64,000 nucleotides of DNA from Chloroflexota bacterium. Its GTDB lineage: Bacteria > Chloroflexota > Anaerolineae > Anaerolineales > Villigracilaceae. This document shows positions 1,893 through 7,296 of this stretch, in pieces. The first letter of the stretch is position 1. Every line of letters begins with the position of its first letter. The notes under the pieces were generated by a model. The model did not search any database. It saw only the letters and a list, made by a program, of their open reading frames with translations, and was not told the origin of the DNA. The translations under genes were made by a program, and so were the position numbers. The stretch lies in NCBI GenBank assembly GCA_016234495.1, contig JACRBI010000052.1:13789-77788 (forward strand), in the 5' to 3' direction.

Positions 1893-1921
1893 TTGACCAA
1901 TCCTCACCCCTCGCATAGAAT
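1893..1921 (+). promoter_or_regulatory. sigma70-type promoter of the aspartate kinase leader
   Basis: TTGACC-17 nt-TAGAAT. Confidence 0.8.
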
Positions 1922-1931
1922 AGCGCCCAAT

Positions 1932-2018
1932 ATGCACAACTACTGTTTCGGCACTATGATGACCATGACCACTACCTCCGGTAAATTCCGTGAGGCCTTT
2001 GTGCTTGGTCAGAAGTAG
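1932..2018 (+). CDS. Thr/Met-rich attenuation leader peptide (28 aa, MHNYCFGTMMTMTTTSGKFREAFVLGQK)
   Basis: Manual translation; TMMTMTTT run; lies between the promoter and a terminator upstream of aspartate kinase; below the ORF track length cut-off. Confidence 0.8.
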   Translation: MHNYCFGTMMTMTTTSGKFREAFVLGQK

Positions 2019-2046
2019 CCGAAATACAGGTTATCTCGAAACACAC

Positions 2047-2077
2047 AACGCCTCACAGAAATGTGGGGCGTTTTTGT
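2047..2077 (+). terminator. Attenuator terminator
   Basis: AACGCCTCACA-GAAA-TGTGGGGCGTT followed by TTTGTT; 5' arm GCCTCAC is also complementary to GTGAGGC at 1990-1996 (antiterminator). Confidence 0.85.
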
Positions 2078-2078
2078 T

Positions 2079-2125
2079 ACCCCACCCCCAACCCCTCTCC
2101 AAGATTTGATCTTGGGGAGGGGAGA
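2079..2125. repeat. CCCTCTCCC/GGGGAGGGG-type palindromic repeat (related copy at about 48148-48200)
   Basis: CCCCTCTCCCAAGAT..ATCTTGGGGAGGGG inverted repeat. Confidence 0.65.
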
Positions 2126-2138
2126 AAAGGAGAATGCC

Positions 2139-3560
2139 ATGTCAAAAACACTCGTCATGAAATTTGGAGGGACATCCGTCGGCTCGGTGGCTGCGCTCGT
2201 CAGCGCCACAGAGATCATTCGCGATGCAAAGAAGGATTGGGACAGAGTCGTCGTCGTGACATCGGCCATGTCTGGAGTGACGAACCTGCTATTAGACTCT
2301 GCCGCATCCGCTTCGCAAGGGAAAGTGGATACACTTCCAGCAGCAGAGTCAGCGCTGAGAGAAAAACACTTCGCCGCCGCCGATGCGCTCATCAAAGATG
2401 AAAAACTTCGCGAGCAGACAAAATCCGAAATCAACGCGCTCATCCTCTCACTCGTGGATTTGTGCAAAGCCATTGCCGTACTCGGCGAAGCCAGCCCGCG
2501 CGCGATGGACGCAGTGGCCTCTCTCGGCGAAAGAATGAGCGTCCGCTTGCTGGGCGCAGTCGCGAATGCGGCAGGCATCCAGGCCAAAGCCATCGACTCG
2601 ACCGAGTTCGTCATCACCAATGCACATTACCAGAACGCGCACCCCGATTTCAAGGTCACGACCGAAAAGACGCGGGAAATTTTGAATCCATTAATGAATG
2701 CGGGCGTCATCCCAATTACAACGGGCTTTATCGGCGCAACGCCTGAAGGCACAATTACAACTTTGGGACGCGGCGGCAGCGATTATTCCGCCGCCATCAT
2801 CGGCGCAGTTCTCCCCGCGGATGATGTCTGGATCTGGACAGATGTGGACGGCGTGATGACCACCGACCCGCGCATTGTGCCGGAAGCGGTCACCCTGCCT
2901 GAGATCAATTACAGCGAAATCGCGGAACTCGCTTATTATGGCGCGAAGGTTTTGCATCCCAAGACCATCCGCCCTGTGCTAGATGCGGGCATTGGCCTGC
3001 GGATTTGCAACACGTTCAACCCCAGTCACCCCGGCACGCGCTTGATTGCCAATGTCAAAAGCAACGGCAAAGTGGATGGAAAAGTCATCAAGGCTGTGAC
3101 CGCCATCCGCAGGCAGAGGTTGATTACCATCGAAGGGCGCGGTATGCTGGGTGTGCCCGGCGTCGCGGCGCGTGCCTTCGGAGCAGTGGCATCCACGGGC
3201 ACAAGCGTTCCGCTCATCACGCAGGCCTCATCGGAACAGTCCATTTGTTTTGCTGTACCATCCGAACTTGCGCCGACAGTTTTATCCGCGCTTGAAAAGG
3301 CCTTCGCCGCTGAAATCACCGATCAGGATATTGACCGCGTCTGGTCCACCGAGGACATTTCGATCATCACCGTCGTCGGTGCAGGGATGCGGCATACGCC
3401 CGGCGTTTCGGGCCGCGTGTTCAGCAAACTCGGCAATGACGGAGTCAACGTGCTTGCCATCGCGCAAGGTTCTTCGGAAGTGTCCATCTCGCTCGTCGTC
3501 GAAGCGGCGGATACGGAGAATGCGGTCAAGGCGTTGCATGAACTTATTGTTGCAGGTTAA
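2139..3560 (+). CDS. lysC: Aspartate kinase with two C-terminal ACT domains
   Basis: VMKFGGTSV, VVVTSAM, TTLGRGGSDYSA, WTDVDGVMTTDPR; AGGAG RBS before ATG 2139. Confidence 0.95.
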   Translation: MSKTLVMKFGGTSVGSVAALVSATEIIRDAKKDWDRVVVVTSAMSGVTNLLLDSAASASQGKVDTLPAAESALREKHFAAADALIKDEKLREQTKSEINALILSLVDLCKAIAVLGEASPRAMDAVASLGERMSVRLLGAVANAAGIQAKAIDSTEFVITNAHYQNAHPDFKVTTEKTREILNPLMNAGVIPITTGFIGATPEGTITTLGRGGSDYSAAIIGAVLPADDVWIWTDVDGVMTTDPRIVPEAVTLPEINYSEIAELAYYGAKVLHPKTIRPVLDAGIGLRICNTFNPSHPGTRLIANVKSNGKVDGKVIKAVTAIRRQRLITIEGRGMLGVPGVAARAFGAVASTGTSVPLITQASSEQSICFAVPSELAPTVLSALEKAFAAEITDQDIDRVWSTEDISIITVVGAGMRHTPGVSGRVFSKLGNDGVNVLAIAQGSSEVSISLVVEAADTENAVKALHELIVAG

Positions 3561-3635: not shown

Positions 3636-4691
3636 ATGAATCAAATCCCCGTTGCAGTTCTCGGCGCGACAGGTTCTGTCGGCCAGCGATTTATTTCGTT
3701 GCTGGATAATCATCCGTGGTTCAAGGTGGTCGCGCTCGCGGCGTCTGACCGTTCGGTTGGGCAGCCATACGCCAAAGCCGCGCGCTGGGTGTTGGACGAC
3801 CCGATGCCCGCCTATGCGCGTGACATGGTCATCGTCCCCGCCAGTGTTGACGCGGTGCAGGCGAAGATTGTTTTCTCGGCATTGCACACAGAAATCGCAA
3901 ACGAACTCGAACCGCAGTTTGCCAAAGCTGGAGCGGCGGTCTGCTCGAATGCGTCATCGTATCGGCGCGGCGAAGATGTGCCGCTGCTGCTGCCCGAGAT
4001 CAACGCGGAGCATATTCAACTCGTCAAGCAGCAGCGTAAGAATCATGGCTGGAGCGGGTGCATCGTCACCAACCCGAACTGTACCAGCACAGGTTTAACA
4101 ATTGCACTCAAGGCATTGGACGAATCCTTTGGTGTGAAAAAAGTTTTCATGGTTTCGTTGCAAGCGCTTTCGGGAGCTGGCTACCCTGGCGTGCCGTCGC
4201 TCGACATCATGGATAACATCATTCCCAACGTGGGCAATGGCGGCGAAGAAGAAAAAGTGGAATGGGAGCCGCGCAAGATGCTCGGCAAATTCAACGAGAA
4301 TAAAATTGACATGGCTGATATTCAATTCAGCGCGCACACCAATCGCGTGGCTGTGATAGATGGTCATACCGTGTGTGCGAGCGTGGCATTGGATAAACCC
4401 GTCGAGCCAGAGGTTGCGATTCAAGCGTTACGCGACTATGCCGCAAAACCGTCAGCGAGGGAATTGCCTTCGACGCCCAAACCAGTCATCGAGGTCAGAG
4501 ATGAAGCGGATCGTCCCCAGCCAAGACTCGATCGATTAACAGGGAAAGGCATGACGACGGTGGTTGGCCGCGTGAGGCGCGATCCCATCCTTGATTTGAA
4601 ATTCGTAGTCCTATCCCACAACACGATCCGCGGCGCAGCGGGAGCGTCCATTTACAATGCGGAGTTGTTGGTGAATGAAGGTCTCTTGTAG
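3636..4691 (+). CDS. asd: Aspartate-semialdehyde dehydrogenase (archaeal/fungal-like subtype)
   Basis: VAVLGATGSVGQ, TNPNCTS, QALSGAGYPG, SHNTIRGAAG. Confidence 0.95.
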   Translation: MNQIPVAVLGATGSVGQRFISLLDNHPWFKVVALAASDRSVGQPYAKAARWVLDDPMPAYARDMVIVPASVDAVQAKIVFSALHTEIANELEPQFAKAGAAVCSNASSYRRGEDVPLLLPEINAEHIQLVKQQRKNHGWSGCIVTNPNCTSTGLTIALKALDESFGVKKVFMVSLQALSGAGYPGVPSLDIMDNIIPNVGNGGEEEKVEWEPRKMLGKFNENKIDMADIQFSAHTNRVAVIDGHTVCASVALDKPVEPEVAIQALRDYAAKPSARELPSTPKPVIEVRDEADRPQPRLDRLTGKGMTTVVGRVRRDPILDLKFVVLSHNTIRGAAGASIYNAELLVNEGLL

Positions 4692-4792: not shown

Positions 4793-4911
4793 CTCTTATC
4801 CAGAGAAGCTGAGGGACCGACCCTTTGACGCTTCGGCAACCAAACGAAAGTTCAGGTGCCAAATTCGGCAAATAGGAATGGCGCAAGTCATTCATATCTG
4901 GAAGATGAGAG
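4793..4911 (+). ncRNA. SAM-I (S-box) riboswitch aptamer
   Basis: CTCTTATCCAGAG..GAGGGAC..GACCCT..GGCAACC..GGTGCCAAATTC..GATGAGAG, upstream of methionine genes. Confidence 0.95.
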
Positions 4912-5032: not shown

Positions 5033-6322
5033 ATGTCCACAAATGATCGCAAGTTAGGCTTTGCCACCCGCCAGCTTCACGCGGGCTATTCCCCCGACCC
5101 CACTACAGGGAGCCGCGCCGTGCCGTTGTATCAGACAACGAGCTATCAATTCAAGAACACCGAACACGCCGCGAATCTGTTCGCACTCAAAGAGTTGGGA
5201 AATATTTACACGCGTTTGATGAACCCGACCACCGATGTGCTCGAACAGCGCATTGCTTCGCTCGAAGGCGGAGTCGCAGCCCTCGCTTCGAGTTCGGGTC
5301 ATGCCGCGCAGGCGCAGGCGATCTTTACGCTGTGCAACGCGGGCGACCATATCGTGACATCCTCCCGTTTGTACGGCGGGACATACAGCCAGTTCAAGTA
5401 CAGCCTGCCCAAGTTGGGAATCGACGTGACCTTTGTTGACCCCTCCGACCCGAAGAATTTTGAAGCGGCGATCCAGCCGAACACAAAAATCATTTACGGT
5501 GAGACATTGGGCAACCCCGATATTTCCGTCTTCCCGTTTGAGGAAGTTGCGGCGATCGCGAAAAAGCATAATCTCGTATTGTTCATTGATAACACCTTCG
5601 CCACGCCGTACTTGTTCCGTCCGTTTGAATGGGGCGCAAATGTGATCACGCATTCCACAACCAAGTTCATCACCGGCAATGGGACTTCCATCGGCGGCAT
5701 CATCGTGGACGGCGGCAACTACGATTGGACGAGCGCGAAGTTCCCCAACTTCAACACCCCCGACCCGTCTTATCACGGGCTGGTGTACTCCTCCATTGCT
5801 GCGGCGGGACTTCCCCCCTTCGCGATCAAAGCTCGTGTGCATGTGCTGCGTGATATCGGCGCGTGCCAGTCACCGTTCAATTCATGGCAGACCTTGCTCG
5901 GCATCGAAACGCTCAACCTGCGCATGGATCGTCACACGCAGAACGCGCAAGCCGTGGCTGAATTTTTGGAGAAGCACCCGAAGGTCAACTGGGTCAAGTA
6001 TCCCGGGCTCAAGAGTCACCCCGATTACGACCGCGCGAAGAAATATCTTCCAAAGGGCGTCGGCGCGATGATGGGCTTCGGGGTCAAAGGCGGGCTGGAA
6101 GCAGGCAGGAAGTTCATCGAGAGTCTGCAACTGTTCAGCCACGTTGCTAATGTCGGCGACTCGCGCAGCCTTGCCATTCACCCGGGTTCCACCACGCACA
6201 GCCAGTTGACCGAAGAACAGCAGGTCACCGCCGGCGTCAGCCCGGACTTCGTGCGTCTCTCCATCGGTCTCGAGGATATTGATGATATTCTCTGGGATTT
6301 GGATCAGGCGCTCAACGCGTAA
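5033..6322 (+). CDS. metY: O-acetylhomoserine aminocarboxypropyltransferase (sulfhydrylase)
   Basis: [22 protein letters not shown] (PLP Lys), [13 protein letters not shown]. Confidence 0.93.
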
Positions 6323-6375: not shown

Positions 6376-7296
6376 ATGCCTGTAAAAATACCCTCCACCC
6401 TTCCCGCCCGTACTGTTCTCGAAAACGAGAACATCTTCGTCATGGATGAAGACCGCGCCATCCATCAAGACATCCGCGCCCTGCGTGTTGCGATTCTGAA
6501 TCTCATGCCCACCAAGATCGCCACCGAGACGCAGATCCTGCGCCTGCTATCCAACTCCGCGCTTCAAGTTGAAGTGACACTCCTTCACACGGCCACATAC
6601 GAATCCAAAAACACCGACGCCGATCATTTGCTGGAACACTACGTCACATTTGAAGATGTAAAGCATGAAAAATTCGACGGCCTCATCGTCACCGGCGCGC
6701 CTGTCGAGCAGATGCCCTTCGAGGAAGTGGATTACTGGAATGAACTGACTCAGATTCTCGATTGGGCTGAGACGAATGTTGAATCCAATTTTTATATTTG
6801 CTGGGGAGCGCAAGCCGCGCTATTTCACAAATACGGCGTCCCCAAATATGACCTCCCAAATAAGATGTTCGGTGTCTACGAGCACCGCATCCTTTCCTCG
6901 ACCGAAAGCCTGCTGCGCGGTTTCGACGACATTTTCCTCGCCCCGCACTCCCGTCACACCGAGATCCGCCGCGCCGACATTGAAAAGATTCACGACCTGC
7001 AAATCCTCGCCGAGTCAGATGAAGCTGGCGTGTACATCGTCGGCACGAAGGATGGGCGGCATCTCTTCATCACCGGCCACTCGGAATATGATCCGCTCAC
7101 CCTCAAAGGCGAATATGACCGCGATGTGAACAAGGGACTGCCCATCCACGTCCCGCAAAATTATTATCCAAAGAATGACCCAACCCAACCTCCAAATGTT
7201 CGTTGGCGCGGACATGCTAATTTATTGTATGCAAACTGGTTGAATTATTACGTCTATCAAGTCACACCGTACGACCCGAATGAAATCCCAAAATAA
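6376..7296 (+). CDS. metA: Homoserine O-acyltransferase, MetA family (acetyl-type signature)
   Basis: ILNLMP, TGAPVE, ICWGAQA, TGHSEYD. Confidence 0.93.

Follow-up and report, generated by a model that had tools for sequence, protein, structure and literature searches.

The 64,000-nucleotide (nt) stretch of Chloroflexota DNA analysed here (contig JACRBI010000052.1, Villigracilaceae; referred to as the window throughout) carries, directly upstream of an aspartate kinase gene and the adjoining asd gene, a compact leader composed of a promoter, a short open reading frame (ORF) rich in threonine (Thr) and methionine (Met) codons and a hairpin with the layout of an intrinsic terminator, which we consider to be a probable attenuator of the two genes. 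For comparison we fetched 80 aspartate-kinase loci, one genome per species, from Anaerolineales or Villigracilaceae-like metagenome-assembled genomes at 77-93% protein identity; the counts out of 70 given below refer to the loci with a recognisable promoter, and the structure alignment comprises 71 leaders. The parts of the element in the window are as follows:

1893-1898 (+): -35 hexamer TTGACC; TTGAC[ACGT] is found in 70/70 relatives
1916-1921 (+): -10 hexamer TAGAAT, kept in 60/70 relatives, the rest having TATAAC, TAAAAT or TATAAA
1922-1931 (+): GC-rich conserved discriminator and predicted start-site region AGCGCCCAAT, which reads ACCGCCCAA(T) in the relatives
1932-2018 (+): ORF of the putative leader peptide MHNYCFGTMMTMTTTSGKFREAFVLGQK, with the ATG at 1932-1934, 28 sense codons and the stop codon TAG at 2016-2018
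1953-1976 (+): putative regulatory codon run ACT ATG ATG ACC ATG ACC ACT ACC (T-M-M-T-M-T-T-T), codons 8-15
1938-1981 (+): region 1, the 5' strand of the predicted anti-antiterminator hairpin; in the minimum free energy (MFE) fold 1938-1981 pairs with 1988-2032
1988-2004 (+): region 2, CCGUGAGGC..UUUGUGC, with region 1 or region 3 as alternative partners
2016-2033 (+): small hairpin overlapping the stop codon, which makes up the antiterminator tip according to the alignment and constrained folding
2044-2057 (+): region 3, CACAAC-GCCUCACA, common to the antiterminator (with region 2) and to the 5' arm of the terminator
2047-2076 (+): intrinsic terminator, with an 11-bp stem (2047-2057/2062-2072), a GAAA loop (2058-2061) and a T run (2071-2075)
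2127-2132 (+): Shine-Dalgarno sequence AAGGAG of the aspartate kinase; (A)AGGAG is kept ahead of the start codon in the relatives
2139-3560 (+): aspartate kinase, 473 amino acids, the first gene of the putative regulatory unit (Pfam AA_kinase and two ACT domains; NCBIfam TIGR00657, 414.7 bits, over the cut-off)
3636-4691 (+): asd, aspartate-semialdehyde dehydrogenase, the second gene of the unit (Pfam Semialdhyde_dh and Semialdhyde_dhC; NCBIfam asd_EA, 424 bits)

Most of these parts had been pointed out in an earlier note on this DNA. The promoter TTGACC-17 nt-TAGAAT is indeed present at 1893-1921, where it is the top of the nine promoter-like sites in the first 9 kb (10/12 matches), and it is conserved in the relatives, 66/70 of which have the same 17-nt spacer. 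The 28-codon ORF with its run T-M-M-T-M-T-T-T was likewise recovered, with the correction that the ATG begins at 1932 and not at 1933, one base off. The GAAA-capped terminator with its U tail was found as described, and so was the complementarity between GTGAGGC (1990-1996) and GCCTCAC (2050-2056), which continues beyond a small internal loop with TTGTG (1999-2003) against CACAA (2044-2048) and shows a compensatory change coupled to the terminator, as detailed below. The RNA from 1928 to 2080 has a folding energy of -56.5 kcal/mol, compared with -34.9 +/- 3.6 kcal/mol for 200 shuffled versions, none of which was as good (z = -6.0), and the 23-nt motif of the codon run occurs a single time in the window, where no occurrence is expected.

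In the relatives, an upstream ORF (uORF) with the core M-T-M-T-T-T(T)-S-G is present in all but ~5 of the ~70 loci with sufficient upstream sequence. In 70/70 loci, the first ATG encountered past the -10 box begins a frame that contains the Thr/Met run and has no stop codon before the run ends; this ATG follows the -10 box by 8-14 nt in all 70 and by 10-11 nt in 64 of them (10 nt in the window). The ORF varies in length from 24 to 33 amino acids, and its N-terminal part differs in both sequence and length. Within the run, the last three positions encode Thr in 60, 64 and 70 of the 70 leaders, with synonymous variation among ACC, ACT, ACA and ACG, and 45 of the leaders have no isoleucine (Ile) codon. 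Directly after the run a 1-nt indel is found in ~8 loci (9 with L186, from a later scan), in which the nucleotide sequence is retained and the C-terminal frame is shifted, giving SRLSVRNLCL... in place of SGTHREAFVLGQK. Since these indels shift the frame while the RNA is retained, the conservation after the run must operate at the RNA level, and that of the run itself at the codon level. Such a comparative pattern marks a leader peptide, as opposed to a small protein with a function of its own or an ORF present incidentally. The earlier note had made its reading depend on conservation of the uORF upstream of lysC orthologues, and this uORF is kept across the Anaerolineales together with both the terminator and the antiterminator pairing.

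Both competing helices are well maintained in the alignment. In the terminator 99.4% of the cells are paired, a share that falls to 28-66% after sliding the 3' partners, and the U run is mostly 4-5 long in essentially all leaders, three distant ones having GTTTGC. The antiterminator (1989-1996/2050-2057 plus 1999-2003/2044-2048) has 88.7% of its cells paired, compared with 18-68% for slid partners; we evaluated it as a named structure, since the RNAalifold consensus of the alignment omitted it and was limited to the terminator and part of the hairpin between regions 1 and 2 (1:2). The most informative site is position 2055 (alignment column 146), where 53-54 leaders have A and 17 have G. Its terminator pair with 2064 is A-U in 53 leaders and G-C in 16, and its antiterminator pair with 1991 is U-A in 53, C-G in 15, U-G in 2 and mismatched in one. 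Accordingly, 52 leaders carry U-A-U and 15 carry C-G-C at the triple 1991/2055/2064; of the four intermediates, two are wobble-compatible and two have a single mismatch. Parsimony on a neighbour-joining tree built from the aspartate kinases requires at least 7-8 changes in each of the three columns, and therefore the switch of the triple is not a single inherited event. The pairing of 2055 is thus kept with two different partners, which directly attests to two helices that exclude each other. The apical 1:2 helix (1975-1981/1988-1995, with U1991 bulged and CCUCCGG at 1975-1981 as the apical part of region 1) is 93.6% paired, and the hairpin at 2016-2033 is 73% paired with double changes at four of its five pairs, in a part of the alignment that is gappy. 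Past the three alternative helices, no conserved multi-helix, aptamer-like core was found in the leader alignment.

Constrained folding, in which a stalled ribosome was mimicked by a 30-nt footprint at six positions on the run, indicates that the geometry could work. With no ribosome and the RNA extended to region 3, the 5' half of the ORF is predicted to pair with its 3' half (-37.0 kcal/mol), so that in the window region 2 is sequestered upstream and region 3 is left free. With the footprint at any of the six positions, the window leader instead folds into the long antiterminator between regions 2 and 3 (2:3), a segment of -26.2 kcal/mol, to be compared with -17.3 kcal/mol for the terminator hairpin 2047-2072 on its own. 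When the ribosome is placed on the stop codon, the predicted structure comprises both the terminator and the apical 1:2 hairpin (-34.9 kcal/mol for the whole leader, 1930-2080). Alternative structures, which the earlier note had proposed for inspection by RNA folding, are predicted in the window, and the stalled-ribosome fold is the antiterminator in 69/70 leaders; the ribosome-free fold sequesters region 2 in 49/70.

Our data suggest that the leader is a ribosome-mediated transcription attenuator of aspartate kinase and asd, having Thr and probably Met as inputs combined in an OR logic, a reading to which we assign a probability of about 0.82. Ribosome-stalling attenuation was also the proposal of the earlier note, and it is supported by the conserved uORF, terminator and antiterminator and by the covariation coupled between both helices. 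The sensing of Thr appears well supported, and Met is likely, with less certainty, to be a second input, a stall on either codon type relieving termination. We infer the following course of events. Transcription would start within a few bases upstream of the ATG (1932), and the 28-codon ORF would be translated without a Shine-Dalgarno sequence. When charged tRNA(Thr) and tRNA(Met) are plentiful, the ribosome would reach the stop codon at 2016, with region 2 either covered or re-paired with region 1; region 3 would then be free, the terminator (2047-2072) would form and RNA polymerase would halt at the U tract. When one of the charged tRNAs is scarce, the ribosome would stall in the run (1953-1976) and keep region 1 open, so that region 2 would pair with region 3 in the long antiterminator, the terminator would be blocked and aspartate kinase and asd would be transcribed. 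Without any translation, the 5' hairpin would form and lead to termination.

With regard to the start of translation, the promoter geometry would place the transcription start at approximately 1928-1930, which would leave a 5' untranslated region of 2-4 nt before the ATG. No Shine-Dalgarno-like sequence fits between the -10 box and the leader ATG, the intervening ACCGCCCAAT being GC-rich and conserved, and because the ATG is too near the promoter for such a site, translation of the leader ORF is probably leaderless or near-leaderless. The discriminator itself (1922-1931, + strand), of the form A[CG]CGCCCAAT, is strongly conserved in the 70 loci and may reflect start-site selection or a stringent-type promoter control. 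Transcripts are available for the corresponding locus of Candidatus Villigracilis affinis (L001), in which the -10 box lies at 2767-2772 and the ATG at 2783. Contigs assembled from metatranscriptomes cover this leader from 2790-2797 on; they start 7-14 nt inside the ORF, none being found in the 185 nt upstream in five metatranscriptome runs, and they extend past the terminator. A shared contig end at position 2939 of that locus was considered as a 3' end and rejected, since the loose ends continue, which makes it attributable to strain divergence. The leader sequence of the window itself had matches in DNA metagenomes only, and in no RNA set.

The order aspartate kinase-asd is retained in nearly all relatives. 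Downstream of asd in the window lie a homocysteine synthase-like metY (5033-6322) and the homoserine O-acetyltransferase gene metA (6376-7296), and the 340-nt gap between asd and metY contains an S-adenosylmethionine (SAM) riboswitch of the SAM-I (S-box) type at 4793-4911 (+), with a score of 76.9 bits (gathering score 44.4). Because they have this riboswitch of their own, metY and metA would form a separate regulatory unit outside the control of the leader. Among the relatives, metY-metA follows asd in 42 of the 55 loci whose leader contains Met codons and is adjacent in none of the three loci that have a Met-less leader and for which sufficient downstream sequence is available (Fisher p = 0.018, with no correction for phylogeny). 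This is a weak tie between the Met codons and adjoining metY-metA genes, and one that is confounded by phylogeny.

In order to survey the distribution of the element, we scanned a degenerate pattern of regions 1-3 over one genome for each of ~186,000 species, which returned 102 stretches, of which 101 were newly fetched and one, L021, belonged to the initial 80 loci. A search with nhmmer and a profile of the leader confirmed 54 of the 101, all of them directly upstream of an aspartate kinase and each in a single copy per contig, including a contig of 4.9 Mb; the other 47 matches come from unrelated phyla, mostly GC-rich ones, and, having no nhmmer support, were dismissed as chance. The element is present in over 120 related Chloroflexota genomes. 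Within the 64 kb of the window no further copies were found, and a scan for other single-amino-acid leader peptides there gave nothing convincing.

At larger distances, a homologous leader persists to ~53% aspartate-kinase identity (L195; with a 118-residue N-terminal query), and in Pelolinea (L216) the layout of -10 box, ten nucleotides and ATG is kept with a Thr-only run. Two Anaerolineae loci (L199 and L201) have Met/Thr-rich uORFs preceded by a Shine-Dalgarno sequence, e.g. AMMMATMMMTTGMGTMTTG, and followed by a terminator, ~100-215 nt upstream of the aspartate kinase; these uORFs contain 7-8 Met codons and show no sequence similarity to the window leader. Constrained folding gave a clear antiterminator in L195, L241 and L253; by the same simple procedure none was obtained for L199, L201, L203 and L216, for which we do not claim a full attenuation mechanism. 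In the two Caldilineaceae loci (L241, 1951-2282; L253, 2125-2452), a SAM-I aptamer is joined directly to a following uORF rich in Thr and Met codons (VMTTTTTMG and VMTTGTTMTT, respectively). The terminator that comes next has a 5' arm able to pair with GGGCGAUGAGAG in the uORF, and the whole arrangement precedes the aspartate kinase. Translation of the leader peptide might be gated by the riboswitch in these cases, and we know of no description of such a tandem of SAM-I aptamer and Thr/Met uORF.

Five other Chloroflexota loci (L202, L205, L206, L208 and L215) have only a SAM-I riboswitch with a terminator ahead of the orthologous aspartate kinase gene. Going by these predicted elements, different Chloroflexota lineages have put different sensors on the same aspartate kinase gene, and both Thr-related and Met-related control of it recur in the phylum. 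Since Met-derived control recurs at the same gene, the view that the Met codons of the window are a real input receives indirect support. T-box leaders were also observed in two distant Anaerolineales/Chloroflexota loci, at 1126-1360 in L198 and 613-845 in L200, both over 1 kb ahead of the aspartate kinase.

Between the terminator and the aspartate kinase Shine-Dalgarno sequence, the window contains one further structure:

2092-2122 (+): lineage-specific palindrome CCCCUCUCCAAGAU-UUG-AUCUUGGGGAGGGG, -25.8 kcal/mol, not a conserved part of the attenuator

This spacer is hypervariable, ranging from 23 to 135 nt; in ~24 relatives it is just 23-34 nt long and unstructured, and others carry different palindromes. 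Those seen among L001-L080 are unrelated to each other, namely CCCCTCTCC..GGAGAGGGG (the window type), AGACCTGACAGGT..ACCTGTCAGGTCT, AGACTTCGGAAGTCT and CTTCTCTTTCAGAGAAG, and they look like insertions of the repetitive extragenic palindrome (REP) or miniature inverted-repeat transposable element (MITE) kind.

The most serious competitor of a Thr and Met attenuator is one that works by the same mechanism and responds to Thr only, the ATG codons being kept for the pairing of AUGACC or as back-up in-frame starts in a leaderless mRNA that initiates poorly. Thr is the invariant part of the run, which holds no Met in five of the 70 leaders and in Pelolinea; the pairing of GACCAU with UGGUC in the MFE fold and the position of the first ATG of L018, which falls within the run itself, would fit the two proposed roles, and the adjoining Met biosynthesis genes are under a separate SAM riboswitch. 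On the other hand, 62/70 leaders interleave 2-3 internal Met codons with Thr, and the 7-8 Met codons of the sequence-unrelated uORFs in L199 and L201 are hard to explain by one RNA pairing. A Met-related input would also be expected from the SAM riboswitches found at the same gene in other Chloroflexota, and the phylogenetically uncorrected association with metY-metA points in the same direction. We thus regard a response to Thr alone as unlikely, though it deserves consideration.

Far less probable is a ligand- or protein-operated switch, i.e. a riboswitch or a TRAP/PyrR-like protein binding the ACC/AUG triplet repeats, in which the ORF would be incidental. The strong nucleotide-level conservation downstream of the run could be read in this way, and the ACC triplets could in principle form a protein-binding array, but the frame is held in all 70 loci despite an N-terminus of variable length, with the ATG fixed beside the promoter, the Thr codons vary synonymously, and the distant leaders retain the amino-acid bias and not the sequence. 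Neither is there a match to an Rfam family, the best sub-threshold ones being leader-peptide models, nor an aptamer-like core besides the three alternative helices. Similarly improbable is a hairpin that does not terminate transcription, with a uORF that would act through translation or mRNA stability or encode a functional micropeptide. Intrinsic termination is presumed in these uncultured Chloroflexota, and the RNA contigs of a relative run beyond the hairpin; however, read-through transcripts are expected of an attenuator in any case, and essentially every one of the 71 leaders has a hairpin of the canonical terminator type, in which a tetraloop closes a GC-rich stem of 11 bp and a U run follows. 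Moreover, the Shine-Dalgarno sequence of the aspartate kinase is separated from it by the hypervariable spacer and lies outside any conserved pairing, and the C-terminus of a would-be micropeptide is not conserved in frame.

Several observations weigh against the two-input attenuator that we prefer. The coupled covariation depends essentially on a single base triple, and the apical 1:2 helix is nearly invariant and hence without covariation support. In 21/70 relatives the ribosome-free equilibrium fold is already the antiterminator, and therefore the off state there would rely on the order of folding. Since ATG has no synonymous codon, the conservation of the Met codons is inseparable from a constraint at the RNA level, the AUGACC repeats do pair with UGGUCA in the MFE fold, and, as noted, some leaders lack internal Met codons. 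Finally, leaderless translation in Chloroflexota is an assumption, and the transcript data are low-depth assembled contigs, whose ends are inexact and which give no measure of termination.

As to its identity among known RNAs, a permissive Rfam search of the leader region gave sub-threshold matches only, among them Phe_leader with 21.3 bits and Thr_leader (RF00506) with 17.5 bits (E = 1.1), both against a gathering score of 55, which does not place the leader in the latter family; at the gathering score, the whole window yielded only the SAM riboswitch located elsewhere. A known RNA family, a lysine riboswitch or a T-box was therefore rejected as the identity of the leader, no Rfam match being found. 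Three structural features of leader-peptide attenuators are nevertheless there, namely eight consecutive Thr/Met codons (1953-1976), a trait shared by at least 70 species, a terminator before the first gene and a mutually exclusive antiterminator. In the literature searched, which left out most subscription journals, we found no description of a Thr/Met or aspartate-kinase leader peptide or of attenuation in Chloroflexi, nor of Met codons as regulatory codons. The leader thus very probably represents an attenuator family that is apparently undescribed, although the mechanism itself is well known.

Most documented cases of leader-peptide attenuation come from Proteobacteria, a few scattered ones being known from Actinobacteria, Firmicutes and Deinococcus, and the window leader would extend the mechanism, with strong comparative support, to the Chloroflexota. 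The Chloroflexota concerned are mostly uncultured filaments, abundant in wastewater plants and groundwater, and to our knowledge almost nothing is known of their gene regulation. The target, aspartate kinase-asd, is the common entry to the synthesis of Thr, Met, Ile and lysine, and the attenuator would be the first in the literature searched to use Met as regulatory codons. Its operation would imply that leaderless translation and intrinsic termination both function in these organisms. In terms of annotation, a gene of 24-33 codons and a cis-regulatory RNA would be gained in well over 100 genomes where they are unannotated, and the small size of the element (~150 nt) makes it a compact, testable part. 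The Met codons, the leaderless start and the phylum are the twists that should be of interest to those working on RNA regulation and on Chloroflexota.

The closest functional parallel is thrL of E. coli, a leader peptide that controls attenuation through Thr and Ile codons. The two have in common a run of Thr codons with a second amino acid of the pathway, alternative anti-antiterminator (predicted in the window), antiterminator and terminator helices and the first enzyme of the aspartate pathway as a target. They differ in that the window leader has no sequence or structure homology to thrL, uses Met and not Ile, and precedes a monofunctional aspartate kinase and asd instead of thrABC; thrL belongs to Gammaproteobacteria, whereas the window leader is found in Chloroflexota, without a Shine-Dalgarno sequence and with its ATG 10 nt after the -10 box. 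In the trp and ilv attenuators of E. coli, either no translation or full translation leads to termination and a stall leads to read-through, and the ilv leaders use several amino acids; this three-state logic would be shared by the window leader, with different regulatory amino acids.

The proposed position of the start codon at or near the transcription start has precedents in Deinococcus deserti, where it is at or next to the transcription start in 14 leader peptides (PMC4007540), and in the actinobacterial ilvB, leuA and trp leaders (PMC1262725). These leaders are likewise enriched in the cognate amino acid and lie ahead of biosynthesis or tRNA-synthetase genes; the genes, amino acids and phylum are different from ours, and the start in the window is placed from promoter geometry. 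For threonine and methionine operons, the actinobacterial survey reported finding no RNA element that is conserved (PMC1262725).

Within the Chloroflexota, the relevant comparison is with the SAM-I (S-box) riboswitch that precedes aspartate kinase in other lineages. At even odds, in our estimation, the window leader belongs to a leaderless two-input family in which the charging of tRNA(Met), and not SAM, reports methionine, and which is interchangeable with SAM-I alone or with the Caldilineaceae arrangement of SAM-I and uORF, where the riboswitch would possibly gate peptide translation so as to combine both signals. The two kinds of element share the gene, the read-out through an intrinsic terminator and an input derived from Met; however, SAM-I senses SAM through an aptamer and without translation, whereas the window element, as proposed, would sense tRNA charging through the ribosome and add Thr as an input.

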